A stretch of DNA of 64,000 nucleotides from contig OX597815.1 of the NCBI GenBank assembly GCA_951406725.2, forward strand, positions 131,378,001 to 131,442,000. Direction: 5' to 3'. A model generated the notes under the pieces. That model did no database searches and was not told the origin of the DNA. It saw only the letters and a program-made list of their open reading frames with translations. Origin of the DNA: Octopus vulgaris (lineage: Eukaryota). The position numbers and the translations under genes are program-made. Shown piece after piece: positions 8,779 through 56,258 of the stretch (its first letter is position 1; every line of letters starts with the position of its first letter).

Positions 8779-8817
<39 letters not shown>

Positions 8818-9169
8818 CTGTCCCTTTCTCCTTTTGTGCTCACGTGACCAGCTAGCTACTACTGCCTTTTCGCATCAAGTAGTTAGTGTGACAACACGTA
8901 TTTGTTTGTGCTCCGTTTGCCTTCAGGCACTTGTTCCACAGCCAGCCTATACTCAACTCGTCCTGTCGAAAGACGCTTGTCCTGACGTCCTGGTTTTGTT
9001 ATTATTGTTTTTACGTTATTTTGTATTCTTCTCCGTGCTATCGTTATTGTTTTTACGTATTTAAAAATTTTTTTCGAGTAACATCGTCCGTTTTTCCGTC
9101 ACCGTGTTGTATACTTTCGAGGTTTTCTTCCAAGGAATCTAATGCGACTGGCTTAGATTTGCCTTGGCG

Positions 9170-9246
9170 GGCTGCCCAGATTGGAGCAATCTCAAGATTA
9201 ATCAGCCGAAATTGCGAAGATGATCTGGTTCTTGACTGATGACTGA
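9170..9246 (+). ncRNA. Rearranged (non-circularly permuted) hammerhead-like ribozyme, copy 1
   Basis: GGCTG(9170)...GCAA-TC-TCAAGA...CAGCC-GAAA-TTGC...TCTTGA-CTGATGA. Helices are GCAAT/ATTGC, TCAAGA/TCTTGA and GGCTG/CAGCC. Confidence 0.7.
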
Positions 9247-9988
9247 GAGCTTCGAAAGTCCCGTCTGTGTGTTTTTTTGTCGTCTCCAAAATGTTTCACG
9301 TTCTTGTCCCAGTTTGTGTTTTTTGTTTTTTTTTAACGTTTACATATATACACGGCGGCTACGTATCCTACCTTTTGACCCTATACTGTAAGTATATTAC
9401 TCTCTAACATTGGTACGGCTCGACTACACTGTCTCTTTTCCCCCCTCTCCTACTTTTCTCTGCCTTCACCCTTTTCACTCCCCTTGTTCTGTCTCTTTCC
9501 CTCTTTTTCTTCTCCTCCCTTGTTCCCCTTCTTTCTTTCTCTCTTCCTCCGTCCCTCCTCTCCCACATTTCTCTGCCTCTCAGACCTTATACCCCACTTG
9601 ACCTGTCCCTTTCCCTCTCTTGCTTATCTCTTCATCTGTCCCTTTCTCCTTTTTGTGCTCACGTGACCAGCTAGCTACTACTGTCTTTTCGCATCAAGTA
9701 GTTAGTGTGACAACACGTATTTGTTTGTGCTCCGTTTGCCTTCAGGCACTTGTTCCACAGCCAGCCTATACTCAACTCGTCCTGTCGAAAGACGCTTGTC
9801 CTGACGTCCTGGTTTTGTTATTATTGTTTTTACGTTATTTTGTATTCTTATCCGTGCTATCGTTATTGTTTTTACGTATTTTTGAATTTTTTTCGAGTAA
9901 CATCGTCCGTTTTTCCGTCACCGTGTTGTATACTTTCGAGGTTTTCTTCCAAGGAATCTAATGCGACTGGCTTAGATTTGCCTTGGCG

Positions 9989-10065
9989 GGCTGCCCAGAT
10001 TGGAGCAATCTCAAGATTAATCAGCCGAAATTGCGAAGATGATCTGGTTCTTGACTGATGACTGA
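9989..10065 (+). ncRNA. Rearranged hammerhead-like ribozyme, copy 2
   Basis: Same motifs as 9170-9246. Confidence 0.7.
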
Positions 10066-11398
10066 GAGCTTTGAAAGTCCCGTCTGTGTGTTTTTTTGTC
10101 GTCTCCAAAATGTTTCACGTTCTTGTCCCAGTTTGTGTTTTTTTTTGTTTTTTTTAACGTTTACACACACACATATATATATATATATATACAGAGAGAG
10201 AGAGAGAGAGAGAGAGGGAGAGGCAGGGGAGAATCAGCACGGTGTTGGAAGTTTCATAGTAAGTTTACCATTGAGTAAATACATATTAGTACATATGCTA
10301 CTAAAGTAAGGATACTAGCAAACTTATGAACGGACGTTTATCAGCACTGAATATAAAGATATCTGACTCAATGCTATAAACGAAACTGCACGAAAGAATG
10401 TTTTTATAAATTAACATTAGTTTATGGCAGTGTTAATGTATAGTTTACCATGTAGGGGAAGTAACAACGGATGAGAAATGAATGATAGATATGATAAAGA
10501 ATTATTATACGAAACGATAGAACGCTATCAATGTTGGTGGTTTTAATGTACAAATATCAGTGTGATACATAACGTCAGTTTTGAAGGTATTTTAATGTAA
10601 ATGCTTGTTGATTCAAATGTCGATGATATTTTAACGACGTTGATACAAACAATGTTGATATTAATGATGAAATTTAGGCGGCGAGCCGGCAGAATCGTTA
10701 TCACGCTGGGGGTAAAATGTTTGGCGGCATTACGCCAGTCTGTAACATTTTGAGTTTAAATGAAGGTGAGGTCATCGCTTTTGCCTTTAATCCTTTGGAG
10801 ATCGATATAATAACTACCAGGTGAGCACTAGGGTGGATGTAATCGATTTATTCTTGAACTGGTTGGCCTTGTGTGCCAAAATTCGGAAACGATGTTAAAC
10901 ATGAAATGGATATTCGACTGAAAATGTAGCAGGATCATAACATCACAGCATTATCTCTGACATTGCCATCAATATTACTATTATCATTATCATCACAAAC
11001 CCAACAGCCTCTTCTTCTTCTTCTTCTTCTTCTTCTACAACCTTCGTGCTCCTCTGTCTTCTCCTTTTCAGCTTCTTCCTTCTCGGCATTATCATCGTCC
11101 CCACATGTACCACCAGTACCTACATCACTACTCCCACCGCTACGTTCGCCGACGACACCGTTATCATCACCATCGCCATCCTCCTCTACGACCTTCTCCT
11201 CTTCCACCTCGTTGTCGTCTTGAAAAAATTACCTTATCTATGTACATAAAAATAAACGATGTTGCAATAAATTGAAATGGAATACGAATTTTAGGAGAGG
11301 ATATTACACAACTTTCATAATATATTCTAAAATTTGTTGAATATTGAAGGAAATTACAATAATTTACCAAAAATAAATGTAAACGAAACAAAAAAATA

Positions 11399-12854: not shown

Positions 12855-14278
12855 TTGTAGTGAAAGAGTACGTGCATCTGCTCTCTCCCCACGAACTCGA
12901 CCTGCAGTCTCCCGCCTCCCTTTTCCCCTCACCTACCACCCCACCACCCTACCTCTCCAACACGCCATTCTCCAAGCTTTCCGGCATCTCCAGTCCGACC
13001 CGTCCACTTCACACATCTTCCCTAACCGACCCATCCCCTCCTTCAAACGAGCCCACAACCTACGAGATCTCTTGGTCCACTGCTTCTTCTCCAACCCTAC
13101 CTCCTAACTAGACTCGTTCCCCTGCTCCCGCCCACGCTGCCGCACTTGGCCTTGCCTCTCCAACACCACCCTCCTCACCGGTACCCATCATTGACCCTAT
13201 CGCATCATCAACTCCTTCACCAGCACCTCCAGCAATATTATTATTGCATCTCCTGCTCTCTCTGTTATTCCCTGTACATCGGACAAACGGGACGTCGATT
13301 GGCTGACCGGTTCGCGGAGCACCTCCGAGACATCCACCTCTGCAATAACACCCCGGTCTCACGCCATTTCTGCTCCACTGGTCACTCCTTGCAACACCTG
13401 TCTGTGTTCGGATTGCCCTTGCACAGAGGCCACCCGGACTCCCGTTTGCACCGTGAACAGGGATTAATCTTCTCTCTTCGCTCTTTTATGCCGTTTGGGC
13501 TCAACTCTTCTCCCCGACTCCTACTTCTCTTCACTCCTACATCTTTTCACCCCTACTTTCTTTCCCTCTTCTCTCTTACTCTCTTTCTCTCTTCTCTCCT
13601 CCTCTCTCTCCTCACTTACCCACCTTCCCCTCCCCCATAAGCCCACCCACCCCCACACATTCCTACTCCACCTTCCCTTCCTTCCAATCCCCATCCTATC
13701 CCACACCCCCCACGTACCCCCCACGTACCCCACCCTCTGCCTACCCACAAACCCTAACTCTACCCCAACCCTCAGCCGAACCCACACCCCACCCGTGCTT
13801 TCCCCACTCTCGCCTCCTACACCTCGCAACAACATCACACCACACCACACCACACTACACTATACAACATTACACATCACATCAAAACACACCACCCACA
13901 CAACCACCAACACACCCATCCCCACATTTTCACTTACACATACATACACGCACACGTCCAGACCACCAGCTCTCTTTCACACACATATATACTCTCTTAT
14001 ACACACACGCACCTTCGTGCTGGGGGGGGGGGCGTCATATTTACTTTGTTATCTCCCCTACTTTCCTTCTCGTGTGTGACCCTTCTGTCCGAGTCAGACG
14101 CCATGATAGATCGTTAGCCACTACACACATTTTTTCTCTCCTTGTTTTCTGTGTCCCTTTTTGTAGAATAGCGTAGGTTCGAGACGTAAAAGACTTTCTA
14201 TTCCTGAGCGTTATACTTATACATCTGTTTGTTTTGTACACCACCTGTCTTCATCTTTTGGTTTTTTCGTAAACTCTC

Positions 14279-16333: not shown

Positions 16334-18854
16334 GATTAGAGATAAAATATAGATTAGAGATAAAACCACTATTATGCAACTCAAATAGTGATAGACATAA
16401 ACCAAAACAAAAGAACAAATATTATAAATCATATAGCTAGATCTCAAAAGTATAAAAATGAATAATCAATATATAATAAGTAAACAAACTACGTACGTTT
16501 CATGGCTACAATTAAATTCGAATTACAATTAAGTGTAAATTCAATTGAAATAAATTCGATTTAAAATTATAGTCAATCTTTAGGTTAATGATAATAGTTA
16601 AATAAATAAGCAAATAGAATTAAACAATATTTATTTAAAAAATATATAACATAATTTTTCTTATAGAAAAAACTCCATTAACTAAATTTGAAACTTCAAA
16701 CATTAGGATTATTTCCTACAACACATTTATTATGTTTAATATTTAATATTTAAGGTATAAAAAATAGATAGAAATATGTATTTATCTGTGAAGATATAAT
16801 TTGGCTCAAACAAACTTTAATAAACTATCGAATATCTTTAACTCAGTTATACTCCAATATTTAATTACCAAATTATTTAACAAAATAATCACTATTAATA
16901 TTTTTAGATTTAAGTTCGCATATAATAATTATAATATAATAAATACATAAAAATAAGTATCTAAATTATAATCAACAAATATATTAATTAAAAATCTAAA
17001 ATTTTCTTTATCAATAAATGTATAAACATATAACCAAGAATAAATTAGTCCATTATTACATAAATATTATAGATATCTATAGAATATATTTATGAAATAC
17101 ATTTTAAGATTGAAAATTTCAGATTAAAATCGTATAACCTATATTTATAATATACTTATTATTACTATTATCATCACTATTATCATCATTATTATCAAAA
17201 ACATTTATACGATATATATCACAAAGTGACTAACTAAGATCTTAAAATTTACGTCCAGTTATAATAACTATATACTAGTAATAATTAAATAAATGTACAT
17301 ATCTAAATTACCATTAACAACTAAAATAATTATAAAATCAAGTTCAAAAATTAATAGTTAGATAGAATACTATGATATTTCTTAAATAAAAATGTTTACT
17401 TATCTCTCATTAACTAAAATTTCAAAACGGAAAACGTCTTTTCAAGCGTTTATAAGAAAACTCGCGGAATTACGTTATTAACAGAAATAGAACATATAGA
17501 TGGAAATATACATTTATCAATGAAAACTACGAATATATTATAGCTTTAATAGATAAAGAGAACAAGGTCACTAATGGAGAATAAAATCACTATACACTAT
17601 AATATCTTCCACTATAAACTTAAAATTTACTACGATAAATTATATTCAATACTCTATAAATTAAAATAATATGTATAACTACTATTTACTGTATATTCTC
17701 TAATAATCTTATACAAATTAATTTATTTCATACTTATATAAAAAATATGGTTACGTTGGAGTCAAATCTTTATTTAAATAAAATAACTTTTAGACACATT
17801 CAATATTAACTCAGTAGTAATTCAATCAGTATCTATATTATAACTACTAATAAATAAACTTAAGTTACTTTAAAAACTATAAGGTAATTAAAATTCATTA
17901 ATAAATAATATTAATTAATTAATGAAATAAACATCTAAATAAATCTACTTCGAAATATATAGTATAAATACAATTTGATTAATATAAAAAAAAATATTAC
18001 AAACTATAAACTTAACTGTCGTTTATAACAAATATATATTATATATCATATTAAAACTCAAAACAAATTCAAAAATAACATATTAAACTTATTATATAGG
18101 TAAAGTAATTTATATTTAGATCAAATACTTCACTCATTAATTTAATAAATAAAGTACATATCATTATTATAAATAAATAGTAGATAAAGTAAAAATTAAT
18201 TTACTACATATTCCAAATTATTTATTTAACGTTACTAAAACTATTACCAAAAACATATATATACGTAATACTATTTATTTTAGTAGACATATAATAAGCA
18301 TAATAATAATAACAATATTAACCACCAAAAACATGAAATAACTATCTTTTAATCTATATTCATTAAATATATATTTAATAATAAAATAAGCATCTAAATA
18401 TAATGTAACTCTAAGTATTTAAAGAACCTTTACGAACTCTTATTGTCTTATATTCAAACCACCTACAGAAGTGCAATCGTAACACTTCTATAATTAATTA
18501 ATTAATTAACTAACTAATTTAATAATTTAATAAAAATGTTAATTTAAACTTATTAAATTATGTAATATACAACATAAAATCACTTGCAAAATTTTAGAAT
18601 TAATGCTAATACAAAATATAACTACAAATTAGAAACAAAATAGGGTTTAAATATAGAAGCTATTTATCTAAAAATTTATTGTATAAGTAAGGTAATTTGT
18701 GTCTACATTTAATATTATGCTCGTCCAATGAATTAACTAATTTTTTATGATTATTAAATAATATTTCTTTAAATTCACTAGAACATAAAAAACAGGAATT
18801 ACTACCTATACCATATGATTTCGCCTTACAAATTATCTCCCACTTTAAATTATA

Positions 18855-18858: not shown

Positions 18859-18921
<63 letters not shown>

Positions 18922-19067
18922 CTATGTATGTATATATAAATGGAACAAAAATGCAATAGAAGGCATTAAAACGTTCGGGCAGATAGACGACACAAAGGCG
19001 ACAAGATAAACAACAATTAGAAGTACAGGCAAAAAAAGGGGACATACGGGTCATTCTTGGCTTTCTT

Positions 19068-19140
19068 TCTTCAGTCAAGTACAAGAAGTCACGACCATTT
19101 CGGAGAGTTTCACATGAGATGGTTCGATATGGTTGTCTCC
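19068..19140 (-). ncRNA. Rearranged hammerhead-like ribozyme, copy 3
   Basis: Minus strand GGAGA...ACCA-TC-TCATGT...TCTCC-GAAA-TGGT...ACTTGA-CTGAAGA. Confidence 0.7.
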
Positions 19141-19652
19141 CCAAAAAGTCTAAGCTAAGAGCATTATACCCCTTTGTAAGAAAGCTACTGAATGTGTACG
19201 GCAACAAAGATAAAGAAAGGAAAGAACGGAGAACATAGTACACAATTACAAATAGAACAACAAGAAATAACAAACGTCGTCTTTCGACTGAGAACGATTC
19301 AATTTGAGCTGGTGTGTATGAAGTAAAATGGACACAAGACGTGTTGACGGTCGGCAGTCAGGCCAAGAAAGAAAGATCATGGCTTGCCGGACACCTGTCA
19401 CGTGGAAGGAGGAGAGATGGGTAGGGGACAGCAATATTGGTGGATTAGAAAAAATTACAGATAAAGGGAAAGGTGCAAGGGAGATAAACGAATGGGAAAT
19501 AGTGGGAGTTAAAGACAGGGCCAAGAAATATGACAGAGGAGAAGAGAGAGAAAGGAATAAAAATGAGAGGGGGAATAAAACATCAAATAAGAGTCGTACA
19601 AAATTTAGATACATACCTACTATAAGGTGAGCACAAGGGTGTACGTACGCCG

Positions 19653-19728
<76 letters not shown>

Positions 19729-19849
19729 AACAAAAACGCAATAGAGGGTATTAAAACGTTCGGACAGATAGACGATACAAAGGCGGACAAGGAAACAACA
19801 ATTAGACGGCAAGGGCGAAAAAAAAAGACGGGTCATTCCTGGCTTTCTT

Positions 19850-19920
19850 TCACCAGTCAAGTACTAGAAGTCACAAGCATTTCGGACAGTAACACTTGAG
19901 ATGGTTCGATCTGGTTATCC
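19850..19920 (-). ncRNA. Rearranged hammerhead-like ribozyme, copy 4 (core CUGGUGA)
   Basis: Minus strand GGATA...ACCA-TC-TCAAGT...TGTCC-GAAA-TGCT...ACTTGA-CTGGTGA. Confidence 0.6.
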
Positions 19921-20090
19921 CAGGCGCAGCCGTCGCTGTGTGGTAAGATGCTTGCTTCCCAAGCACATGGTTCCGGGTTCAGTCCCACTGTATGGCACCT
20001 TTGACCAGAGTCATCTACTATAGCCTTAGGCCGACTAAAGCATTGTGAGTAGATTTGGTAGACGGAAACTAAAAGAAGCCCGTCGTATTT
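19921..20090 (+). mobile_element. SINE family A, 5' half
   Basis: tRNA-like head with GGTTCAGTCCC, and body as in 49787-50190. Confidence 0.85.
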
Positions 20091-20153
20091 ATATTTGTAT
20101 ATAAATTTATATTTGTATATATAAGTTGGTTATATGCTGAGACTAAAGTTGGG

Positions 20154-20465
20154 TTATATACTGAGACCGAAGTTGGTTTTCATATTTAGGTGTGTTCTGT
20201 ATTTTTCGATAAATAAATTTTCATTGTTTAAACGTACATGTACAAAACTTGTTTCTTTGCACTGGTAGATGGGGAAAACGGTGAACTTCGGTTGCATATT
20301 ACTTTCACACCACTCTATAATTTCATTAAAAGGAATCTGTCTGTATTTTGGAAAATGGATCTGTTCCTCATGTAGTGTGGTTCTCCATCTAAGTGCCATA
20401 CAAGTTATATATTAGATTCTCAGAGGCACAAGTGAAGTTGGTTTTAATTGTGAACCTCTCTCCTT
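20154..20465 (-). mobile_element. PLE GIY-YIG fragment
   Basis: RFTIKTNFTCASENLI / LRWRTTLHEEQIHFPKYRQIP..., homologous to the GIY-YIG at 41560-41880. Confidence 0.8.
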
Positions 20466-20469
20466 CTGA

Positions 20470-23135: not shown

Positions 23136-23255
23136 ATGCTTACAGCACTTAGGTTTCCATAGCGGTCACCCATCTAAGTACAAACTAGGCTCGATGTTGC
23201 TTAACTTCGGTGATCGGACGAGAACCGGTGCTTTCAACGTGATATGGCCGTAAAC
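23136..23255 (-). rRNA. Full-length 5S rRNA-derived copy (likely retrocopy or SINE head)
   Basis: Minus strand GTTTACGGCCATATCACGTTGAAAGCACCGGTTCTCGTCCGATCACCGAAGTTAAGCAAC...GTACTTAGATGGGTGACCGC...GTGCTGTAAGCAT, 120 nt. The terminal helix is intact and box A and box C are recognisable. It is a solitary copy, not in an array. Confidence 0.9.
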
Positions 23256-36127: not shown

Positions 36128-36730
36128 GAAAGACTCTGGGATAGTTCTTAATTACCGGTTATTCCTTATTTGAAAGCAGGCAACAACAAATCACCAAAGG
36201 TTTCAAGTAGTGTCTTCTCCTGTGACTCAAAGAGACAATACTCTCCTTAGAATGCGCGCTGTACACAACAATGCTGTCTTCTGGATCACTTCGAGTCTGA
36301 CAGCAGCTCCAATATTCTTAATATGTTTTTCAAACGCCTTGGAAACCGCTCCTAATGCAGCAACTACAACCGGTATTCTCATTACTTTCCCCATGTTCCA
36401 TAACTTTTTTATCTCGTCCCATAGTGGCTGGTATTTCTCACTCTTTCCTGTTTCCTTATATTTCGCTCTCGAATCGCTTGGTGTTACAACATTTATCATC
36501 TTTGTTTGTTTTTCATCTTTATGAATGATCACGATATCTGGCTGTCTCGCTTCTATGACTTGGTCGCACTGTATGTTAAAATCTCAGAGTATTCTGTAGT
36601 GGTCGTTTTCTATTGTATCCCACAGGATTTTGCAATTCTCGTTTTCCCTAACTCCTTCTGGGGTTTGCTGATACCGCATTTTTTCTCACTGTAGGCTAAT
36701 GGATCATTCTTGCCACATTGTCATGGCGTC
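36128..36730 (-). mobile_element. R4/Dong-like RLE LINE 3' fragment in (TAA)n
   Basis: ORF 36227-36532 ...KYQPLWDEIKKLWNM..IPVVVAALGAV...IQKTALLCTARILRRVL, with (TTA)n on both sides. Confidence 0.85.
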
Positions 36731-40764: not shown

Positions 40765-42235
40765 TAGATATAAAAAATAAAGGATTTTTAAAGAAAAGCA
40801 AAGCTATATTTAAATGAGAACTGGAAGAGGTACTTAGATGATTGCTTTATACTTTGGAACGATAGCATGGACAAACTCCTGGATTTCAAAATAATGCTCA
40901 AAAATACCAATAGCAACATACAATTCACCATGGAACACAGCAATAAACAAGTTCCTTTTCTTGATATACTAATTAAAATAGTCAATAACCACATCGAAAC
41001 GGACATCTTCTATAAACCCACAGATTGAAAACAATACATATTATTTAACTCATGTCACTCCAAACACATAAAAATTAATATACATTATATTCGAGCGAAA
41101 AGAATCTGTACCATAGTTTCGGACACCAATACTCGTGAACGAAGATTTCCTGAACTTAAATCAACACTAATCAAGAGACATTACCCAACATGATTAATAA
41201 ATGATGAGATTAAACGAGCAAAAGAAATAGACATATAAACAGTAAGGGAAGTTAACCGAAATACTACACCAGATTTAAAAATACTGCCATACATCTCCAC
41301 ACACAATCCTAGAAACAATGAGGCCTTCGACACCATCATCGAAAATCTACCCATTCTGATTGGAGATAAAACAATTAACAAAATTCTAAGCTCACACAAA
41401 ATTATCAAGAGCAAAATGCAACCAAAATCACTGAAAAAAATATTAACCAGCGCAAGACTATATCCATTAACAACGGAACCAAAAGCGAAAACATGCGGGC
41501 GGCCTAACCGTGGCATATGCCCCCACATTTTGGCGAGTACAGTGTTTCACTTCAAACAAGGTGAAATATTTAAGATAACATCAAATTTCACCTGTGCCTC
41601 TGAAAATTTGATCTATGCTATTATCTGCTTAGGGTGCAGAACTCACTATTTAAGCCAAACAGGAATGTCACTCCGACGAAGAACAACTCTTCACAAAGAA
41701 CAAATCCGCTACCCACAATATAGGTAGACACAGCTCAGTGAGCACATAGAAAGATGTGCTAGGAACCTTAAACCGAACTTCCTGATTTTCCCTTTTTATC
41801 AATGTTCACAGAACACCTCAATATAGCAAAGATCAAACAAAGAGGCAAGTTTCATTAATAAATATCATCCACAACTCAACATGAATACACAACTTAATAC
41901 AGGACACTACTAACCTTACCAATACCAATAATTCCCACTACTCTCCATACATCCCATACACCATCCATATTCCAGTATTTATATCCACTTTAATTGCATG
42001 ACATCCAGAACTGCTTACCTCTCTTGCATGTAATCTTTTAACTCAGGTGCTATTAGACCCAACACCGTTTGGATATCGGTGTTCTATAATGATTCATAAT
42101 AAAGATTTATATGCTTCTTAATTCTACTTCAGATAATCTAATTGTATGTATACATCTTTGCTTTACTTAAAAAACCCTTTATGTTTTCATATCTAATGTG
42201 CATTTTCTCCCTTTTCTTTTTATTCCCCCCTATAC
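40765..42235 (+). mobile_element. Penelope-like element (Neptune-like), RT C-half plus GIY-YIG, degenerate
   Basis: RYLDDCFILW, IQFTME, VPFLDILI, TDIFYKPTD, Cys-rich linker CGRPNRGICPH, and NFTCASENLIYAIICLGC..YLSQTG..LRRRTTLH. It carries in-frame stops. Confidence 0.92.
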
Positions 42236-54997: not shown

Positions 54998-56258
54998 GAG
55001 CAACTGAGTATGGAGTATTTCCGAAGACTGAGGCTGGTGTAGCATTCAAAACTGACTGGATGGAATAAAATCCAAGTAGTTAATACATGGGCGATAGCAC
55101 CATTCCGATATAGAGCGGGAAGATATAAAATGGCAAAAGAGAGAAATGAAGAAAACGGATACCAAGACCAGAATAATGTTGACAGTACACGGAGCCTTCT
55201 ACCATAAGAGTGACACCGATATGCTGTACTTGTCCAGAAGAAAGGGTGGAAGAGGTTTGATCAGTTGCCAGGACTGTACCGAAACAGAGGGAAAAGCCTA
55301 AGGTGGTATATAAAAATGATGTGGAGCCAGTGTTGAAACAGGAAGCAGGGCGGCGTAATCAAAACTGAAAATTGTGTAACTAAATAGAAAATAAAATAAA
55401 AAATGAATAAAAAAGAAAAAGCATGGAAGGAAAAGAAAATGTACGGTCAGTTTGCAAGAGATGAGAATACCAAGACAGATACAGAAGACCGGTATCTATG
55501 GATGAGAAGGAGTGATAATGACAGAGGCACTCATACGCGCAGCTCAGAAACAATCGTTAATGACCAATTATATGAAGTACAGAATAAACAACATTACTGA
55601 TAGCGACAAATGCAGAATATGTGGTGAGAAGGGTGAAACGGTATGGCTCATCGTTAGCGAATACCTGAAATTGGCACAACGCGAGTATAAAAGATGCTGT
55701 GACAATCTGGCAACAATGATCCATTGTGAGCTCTGTGGAAAACACGACCTACAAAGAGAAAAGACGTGGTATGAGCAAACTGCAGAAGGAGTTACCGAAA
55801 ACGAGAAGTGCAAAATCCTGTGGAGATGCAATGATCCAGTACGATCACCCGACCAAACATCGGAAACCGCACATTGTTGTGGTGAATAGAAGAGAAAGAA
55901 TATGTATGATAATCAACATGGAATGCCCCGGTGACAACAGGATCAATGTGACAAATTAAAAAATAAACAGCTATGGCGACATGAAGTGGGAAATACGGAG
56001 GTTGTGGTCAATGAAGAGAGTGGACGTGATACCAATAGTAATTGGTGCATTTGGAAGTATCAGCACTCAACTATCAATATGGCTGAAAATGATCGATGCA
56101 AGTGTGAAGGTAGAACACCAACAAAAATCAGCATTGTTTGGAACTGCAAGAATTCTTCGCAGGGTTCTTAAAGCATGACCAGTAGCAAGTGCCACCTTAG
56201 TGTACTGGATGTGGACAGCTGACACCATCATACACAGCAAAATAAGTTGTGAGTTTTC
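54998..56258 (+). mobile_element. R4/Dong-like RLE LINE 3' half in (TAA)n
   Basis: LYLSRRKGGRGL, TEALIRAAQKQSL..CRICGEKGETVWLIVSE..KLAQREYKR, RKPHIVV and IPIVIGAFG..QKSALFGTARILRRVL*. Confidence 0.9.

Follow-up and report, generated by a model that had tools for sequence, protein, structure and literature searches.

A predicted hammerhead ribozyme with a split core in a non-autonomous, retrozyme-like unit of Octopus vulgaris

We analyzed a 64,000-nucleotide stretch of the Octopus vulgaris genome (GenBank assembly GCA_951406725.2, contig OX597815.1, positions 131,378,001 to 131,442,000 of the forward strand), hereafter called the window, which carries a 716-bp non-coding retroelement copy, unit B, on its minus strand. 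We consider it likely that unit B represents a non-autonomous, retrozyme-like element bearing a predicted hammerhead ribozyme in which the three core blocks follow the order S-G-C and the chain is split between A9 and G10.1, that this ribozyme cuts itself in intact copies, and that the unit was copied into (TA)n tracts by a Penelope-like element (PLE), with Naiad as the best candidate for B. With somewhat less assurance, we lean towards a broader proposal, in which this layout is a seventh natural hammerhead topology, built on a four-way junction and a kink-turn (k-turn), and active in Naiads from coral to octopus and in the retrozymes derived from them. Under this proposal nematode Naiads would keep the unsplit CSG type, and the clamped ends of the cut RNA would close to a circle that is then reverse transcribed.

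Unit B and the layout of its predicted ribozyme

The original prediction, made from the letters of the window, had described a unit of about 730 bp with a partial upstream copy on the minus strand, diverged from a plus-strand unit at 9350-10165. Both pairs of copies were found:

18938-19653, minus strand: unit B, a full-length copy of 716 bp whose 3' end is a (TA)n tract
19725-19921, minus strand: B2, a 5'-truncated copy of 197 bp upstream of B, with which it forms a partial tandem
9350-10157, plus strand: unit A, of a young sister subfamily, with an intact module (core at 10055)
8807-9344, plus strand: partial upstream copy of unit A (core at 9236)

Unit B is bordered by (TA)n on both sides. 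Local alignment of the whole units confirmed the relationship between B and A, with a score of 355.5 against 168±14 (maximum 210) for 200 dinucleotide and 200 block shuffles; identity was 62.6% over 286 columns in the 3' half of B (A taken as 9345-10165, E=9e-13). Furthermore, nested insertions in the loci that we fetched yielded families X, Y, Z, C, E, V and W, which have other sequences and the same layout. Family X is young, its copies being 97-99% identical with a tandem spacing near 350 nt. The loci L070:2200-2310, L145:3750-3840, L104:950-1050, L201, L123 and L189 represent at least six families of this layout.

The hammerhead numbering, the k-turn consensus and the junction stacking used below are general knowledge of these motifs. 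Read 5' to 3', the strands of the module come in the order helix IV, P0 hairpin, 10.x strand, I/II-helix strand, block S, block G, I/II-helix partner, block C and the second strand of helix IV. In unit B they are the following:

19178-19194, minus strand: 5' strand of helix IV, which pairs with the tail after A9 and is present in the predicted minimum-energy fold
19142-19177, minus strand: P0 hairpin, between helix IV and G10.1
19136-19140, minus strand: upstream 10.x strand of stem II, with 5 of 5 pairs to 19106-19102
19128-19133, minus strand: 5' strand of the I/II helix, with two mismatches to its partner at 19086-19081
19112-19125, minus strand: block S, comprising the k-turn GA, a stem III strand, AUC and the 5' strand of stem I
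19089-19106, minus strand: block G, comprising the 11.x strand, GAAA (19101-19098), the 3' strand of stem III and, from the predicted k-turn, its 3-nt bulge and GA
19068-19080, minus strand: block C, comprising the 3' strand of stem I and CUGAAGA (19074-19068), with no stem II strand after it
19052-19067, minus strand: tail after A9, the 3' strand of helix IV

Every nucleotide of the hammerhead core (CUGANGA, GAAA and NUH) is intact in this module, and the predicted cut falls at AUC, between 19118 and 19117. Stem III pairs S with G and stem I pairs S with C, which gives the non-circular order S-G-C; stem I of B contains one U-U mismatch, in block S. The partner strand of stem II is located about 20-26 nt upstream of the cut, where its first G lies opposite C11.1. 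Because stem II is formed by this upstream strand, the chain has a break between A9 and G10.1: in B and in most families, A9 is joined to G10.1 neither directly nor via 1-2 bases.

Helix IV and P0 would bridge this break. In B, helix IV comprises 8 bp directly from the base after A9 and another 5 bp past an internal loop; in A, A' and A'' it comprises 15 bp starting 2 nt after A9, and in X, Y and Z 5-6 bp, as read by eye from the majority sequences. P0 ends 0-2 nt before G10.1. The k-turn consensus, a 3-nt bulge with tandem G-A pairs between stem III and the I/II helix, was found in 10 of 13 representatives as well as in both window copies, and was absent from X, X2 and Z. In the proposed fold, helix IV would stack on P0, stem II would stack on the A9-G12 pair, and the resulting four-way junction could hold A9 beside G10.1 without a covalent link.

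A CCCG motif was also seen about 20 nt after the core in A, B and C (19045-19052, minus strand, and 10075-10085, plus strand, in the window). A pairing of this conserved tail with upstream G's was considered and dropped, being in competition with stem II and unsupported by covariation, and no covarying partner was found.

Covariation and competing folds

What is conserved between A and B is pairing, not sequence. Over stems I-III as well as the I/II helix, 6 of the 21 pairs differ between the two units on both sides and none is broken, so the module and its pairings do persist in B, as the original prediction had stated. This compensatory contrast with subfamily A is the value of the B locus. 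It also agrees with the proposed old, diversified family selected on RNA structure, since the founders of the subfamilies kept their pairing: selection acted between subfamily founders, and single copies decay about evenly.

Pairing was then compared within and across families. Own-family strands paired better than cross-family strands for stem I (5.0 vs 3.1 of 5 positions) and for stem III (4.9 vs 2.9 of 5 positions), neither difference being reached in any of 20,000 permutations. Since the upstream strand of stem II had been picked by search, the stem II test was repeated with equal freedom on both sides. The upstream strand formed 5.2 pairs with its own family vs 3.1 across families (exact p=0.0028) among six groups that all come from one genome, are few and are incompletely independent. 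The downstream candidate gave no cross-family signal (3.1 vs 2.7 pairs, p=0.21, range 0.21-0.41). Thus, the G10.1-C11.1 pair and stems I, II and III with covariation are all present, stem II only through the upstream strand. Moreover, the only invariant columns in an alignment of 14 modules were those of GAAA, a single U and five positions of the seven-base CUGANGA, all of them hammerhead core bases, and the base at the cut site was never G in the family majority sequences.

We asked how these results bear on an ordinary type-SGC hammerhead with 1-5 nt inserted after A9, in which the upstream strand would act only as an inhibitor that blocks stem II until it is needed. A viroid hammerhead tolerates one extra base after A9, and a downstream pairing of 4 bp is possible in X, X2 and Y (1-nt insertion) and in A', A'' and C (5-nt insertion). 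However, A, B and E offer no downstream stem II (1 bp at best), and pairs directly after CUGANGA with the strand before GAAA numbered zero in nearly all of the 84 distinct variants among 126 descriptor hits. The lack of covariation downstream, set against the signal upstream, likewise argues against this fold, as does the fact that the upstream strand runs straight into the I/II helix, like 10.x in types SGC and CSG, while the tail after A9 is occupied by helix IV. We therefore regard an ordinary SGC hammerhead as quite improbable. We rejected a type I or type II reading, because the strand with the cut site precedes GAAA and has the strand 5' of CUGANGA as its partner.

Published work is cited here from excerpts of the papers and, where named, of their supplements. 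Compared with type SGC as described by Eckert et al. 2023 (HRIMA-1 and variants, PMC10085705), the octopus module shares the S-G-C order, all core nucleotides, a short linker between stems I and II, a helix joining the far ends of these stems and at least two pseudoknots. It differs in that the 10.x and I/II-helix strands lie 5' of block S, so that block C does not continue into a 10.x strand at its 3' end: it is interrupted after A9, and helix IV and P0 bridge the gap. It also differs in its k-turn consensus joining stem III to the I/II helix and in its presence in an animal genome. With type CSG (PMC10085705) it shares the cyclic order, 10.x being followed by the I/II helix, S and G, whereas the CSG chain opens after block G and the octopus chain between A9 and G10.1. 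Type CSG has so far been supported by two metagenomic sequences.

According to the excerpts of that study, SGC was found only in metatranscriptomes, and none in the genome of any known organism besides one GCS candidate. Non-circularly permuted hammerheads in animal genomes are not reported in the literature that we searched, and no description of the split A9/G10.1 wiring was found there (most subscription journals lay outside this search, as did the supplements to Eckert et al. 2023 and to the 2026 preprint cited below). Rfam returned no ribozyme family at E≤10 for 18990-19300 and no ribozyme among the 150 matches listed, of 197, for the whole window. If cleavage proves true, the hammerhead core can do without the A9-G10.1 bond, which would break the assumption behind the six-permutation scheme, and non-circularly permuted hammerheads would enter animal genomes.

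Several observations nevertheless weigh against a split, self-cleaving ribozyme. The module was predicted to be more conserved than its flanks, which held for the 3' flank (75% vs 52% identity between A and B) and failed for the T-rich 5' flank (77%). Single B copies decay nearly evenly, with 4.2% non-CpG changes in the module and 5.2-5.5% in the flanks, and the full core with all three stems is kept in only 9 of 29 B copies. The fold of B is not unusually stable relative to shuffles (z=-1.23, for a nested fold with pseudoknots left out). Helix IV and P0 come from a best-match search and visual inspection, with no comparison across families; run automatically, the search settled on different partners in several families, X, Y and Z among them, and subfamily C has no P0. 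The 4-bp downstream stem II that X, Y and the major A-type subfamily allow after 1-5 nt points the same way. Finally, the interruption of block C conflicts with the assumption, in the excerpts of PMC10085705, that blocks stay whole.

Both copies in the window are decayed fossils. B is 91% identical to the subfamily majority sequence (its 3' 355 nt) and B2 is 93% identical, while the two are 84% identical to each other, which fits a single old tandem insertion that has since decayed. B2 starts 21 nt before its own predicted cut. Its ribozyme is probably dead because its core carries A6->G and its stem III one mismatch.

Copying of the units and the link to Naiad

DNA searches gave 2,487 first-look candidates for B, the best 39 other copies being 82-86% identical, and 2,746 for A, at 96-99% identity. 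A 30-place pattern of the tail had 3,929 exact matches in the genome, compared with none for the reversed control. Aligned B copies all stop at the same 3' position, with (TA)n after it in nearly every case, and vary in 5' truncation. No similarity to reverse transcriptase (RT) or endonuclease was found inside the unit. These are non-coding tandem units with one hammerhead each, as in retrozymes, and the evidence supports a non-autonomous PLE-type element. The A family is covered by assembled contigs of four presumed-RNA runs, contigs that carry no information on ends, strand or circles.

The octopus units resemble animal non-LTR (long terminal repeat) retrozymes (Cervera and de la Pena 2020, PMC7229834; Li et al. 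2026, 10.64898/2026.07.22.740005), which are likewise non-coding tandem units with one hammerhead each and have been proposed to be non-autonomous PLE derivatives; the octopus size falls within their range of 51-972 bp. In contrast, those retrozymes are defined by type I hammerheads, and the octopus topology, with its S-G-C order, is not type I. In addition, the octopus copies are mostly dispersed monomers and partial dimers.

The 5' ends of the copies bear on the template for reverse transcription. In 8 of 11 distinct A tandems, found with a query that favored copies containing the module, the 5' end of the upstream partial copy lies ahead of that copy's predicted cut. This pattern would exclude a linear, unit-length cut RNA as the template, and a circle or an uncut multimer would both account for it. 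We also profiled 95 copies from the first 100 listed among the 3,929 tail matches. Their 5' ends lie at or after the cut in 36; the 20-nt stretch that begins at the cut holds 25 ends, compared with 6 in the preceding 20 nt (Fisher p=0.007). This step fits a cleaved template, but it fits stalling in the pseudoknot equally well, and only 3 of the 95 copies have their 5' end exactly on the predicted cut; we count both points against self-cleavage. In the Naiad family, 3 of 57 rows have 5' ends at most 3 nt from the cut, two of them being neighboring copies at one locus.

These data leave room for a fold that is real and no longer catalytic, serving as a hammerhead-derived recognition or priming signal for the PLE protein. 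Copying through two cut sites in those 8 tandems looks like copying from an uncut transcript, and in a study of vertebrate retrozymes only one of nine tested elements cleaved (10.64898/2026.07.22.740005, excerpts). Yet the bases that are invariant across unrelated families are the catalytic ones, and no family majority sequence has G at the cut site. We thus consider loss of catalysis unlikely.

With a self-cleaving ribozyme, copying could proceed as follows. Tandem transcripts would be cut to unit length, and stems II and III together with the I/II helix would hold both ends together, favoring closure to a circle. Reverse transcription would then run from a fixed site round the circle, or along an uncut multimer, and give rise to partial tandems. 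The PLE protein would nick (TA)n and prime at a fixed internal site, a mode of priming shown for a lizard PLE (PMC11167929, excerpts).

Several lines of evidence tie this design to Naiad. Craig et al. 2021 (PMC8557442) report, in the excerpted text, no canonical hammerhead in Naiads, and mark eight Naiads, that of O. vulgaris included, as 'HHR_half_core' with (TA)n as target. We found that the 3' ends of the published Naiad_Obim and Naiad_Ovul consensus sequences have the same split layout as the unit module. By eye, the split layout occurs in at least seven places of the published consensus sequences (three Acropora families, two octopus, and two unnamed in the excerpts); in the coral ones, helix IV abuts A9 and P0 abuts G10.1. 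Two consensus sequences in the nematode section of supplement S5 contain an intact type CSG, also read by eye. These counts are a lower bound: 60 of the 62 CTGATGA and 30 of the 43 CTGAAGA occurrences were read, in a supplement listing 54 families, and line-broken motifs and other core variants were missed. In the octopus genome, the Naiad module motif had 683 matches (control 0), and the module lies downstream on the same strand at 7 of 16 Naiad RT loci.

Like Naiad, unit B targets (TA)n, occurs in partial tandems and as 5'-truncated copies, and has the ribozyme design seen in the Naiad 3' untranslated region (UTR). It differs in lacking any similarity to RT or endonuclease and in having no detected sequence match to the Naiad module. 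If cleavage is true, the split would also account for the failure of descriptor searches to pick up ribozymes in Naiads, a clade with tens of thousands of copies in some invertebrates, and short transcripts and natural compensatory variants allow a direct test of what PLE hammerheads do.

Other results speak against Naiad as the driver. The B module was found at none of the 16 Naiad RT loci, so that no B is joined to a Naiad open reading frame (ORF). Naiad-like RT hits in this genome are short broken frames, the longest of 292 aa, in line with the broken cephalopod Naiad frames noted by Craig et al. (PMC8557442, excerpts). Because these frames are broken while copies of A and X remain 96-99% and 97-99% identical, the recent driver of the young A and X subfamilies may be another PLE. 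One candidate is a very young 899-aa PLE family with many intact frames, 97-99% identical copies and 3.6-kb tandems (G000, e.g. L244, L238 and L240), which we take to be Hydra-like from its motifs.

Mobilization of the same ribozyme by another retrotransposon, whether a Neptune-like or Hydra-like PLE or a HERO-type element, is accordingly possible, and we hold it to be a doubtful but serious alternative to Naiad. The 899-aa family offers nearly identical copies, and Neptune-like frames of 594-683 aa are present in the same genome as the broken Naiad frames. Nevertheless, a type I-like motif of its own is present in the Neptune-like family, and inspection of two 3' UTRs of the 899-aa family revealed no S-G-C module. 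The single HERO-like family tested, which encodes a restriction-like endonuclease (RLE), had no module in the 3' UTR at any of 30 loci. The spread of B copies (82-86%), moreover, fits that of the Naiad module (85-91%), and we retain Naiad as the best candidate for B.

The 3' UTR of the 899-aa family also contains the motif CUGAAGA...CGAAAC, in which the stem II region is long.

The neighboring GIY-YIG fragment and other features of the window

A GIY-YIG fragment had been reported just upstream of the units on the same strand, separated from them by a short interspersed nuclear element (SINE). The fragment is real, and a SINE-like repeat does lie in between:

20166-20466, minus strand: GIY-YIG remnant from the C-terminus of a Neptune-like PLE, interrupted by a frameshift and an internal gap
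19922-20119 (approximate), plus strand: dispersed repeat resembling a SINE, inserted separately and oriented head to head with B2

Traced from 20466 to 20181, the fragment is 60-85% identical to a PLE ORF of 635 aa. This relative has the arrangement RT-linker-GIY-YIG, with Pfam GIY-YIG above the cut-off and RVT_1 just below it, and a Cys linker as in Neptune and Nematis according to the excerpts of Craig et al. (PMC8557442). Pfam gave no match for the 80-aa fragment of the window itself.

The original prediction had taken the units as probable pseudo-LTRs of a PLE or their non-autonomous derivatives. The second part stands, as a non-autonomous PLE-type element whose design is common with Naiad; the tie to the adjacent fragment does not. 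B and B2 as the pseudo-LTR of the GIY-YIG element, parted from it by the SINE, would account for B2 and the fragment lying on the same strand 250 bp apart. However, an A/B-type module was found within 1.5 kb downstream of GIY-YIG at none of 29 other loci, so copies contiguous with PLE ORFs were encountered neither here nor at the Naiad loci. In one of these 29 relatives, an X module lies 560 nt downstream, inside a complete 3' UTR. The 3' UTR that these relatives share differs in sequence and holds an apparent minimal hammerhead of its own, type I-like as read by eye. Furthermore, the UTR of the window fragment ends about 30 nt past the stop codon, and all these elements cluster in (TA)n anyway. 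We conclude that the GIY-YIG fragment is a neighbor and not the parent of B, and judge the pseudo-LTR explanation highly improbable.

In this apparent hammerhead of the Neptune-like family (L070:~1975-2010; 3' UTR of L062-L104), A3-U8 replaces C3-G8, stem II is a GNRA-capped stem of 2 bp, and stem III is palindromic. Two more PLE fragments lie on the plus strand of the window, at 40804-41889 and 12916-13391; one is about 60% identical to the Neptune-like ORF and one belongs to a distant family (26-33%). Weak similarity to RLE-type endonucleases was noted at 55855-56076 (plus strand) and 36308-36544 (minus strand), each followed by a (TAA)n tail. The region 17500-18850 is very AT-rich and looks mitochondrion-like by eye, with no long frame under translation table 5 and no transfer RNA called. 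A full-length 5S ribosomal RNA gene or pseudogene (98 bits) is located at 23137-23255 on the minus strand.
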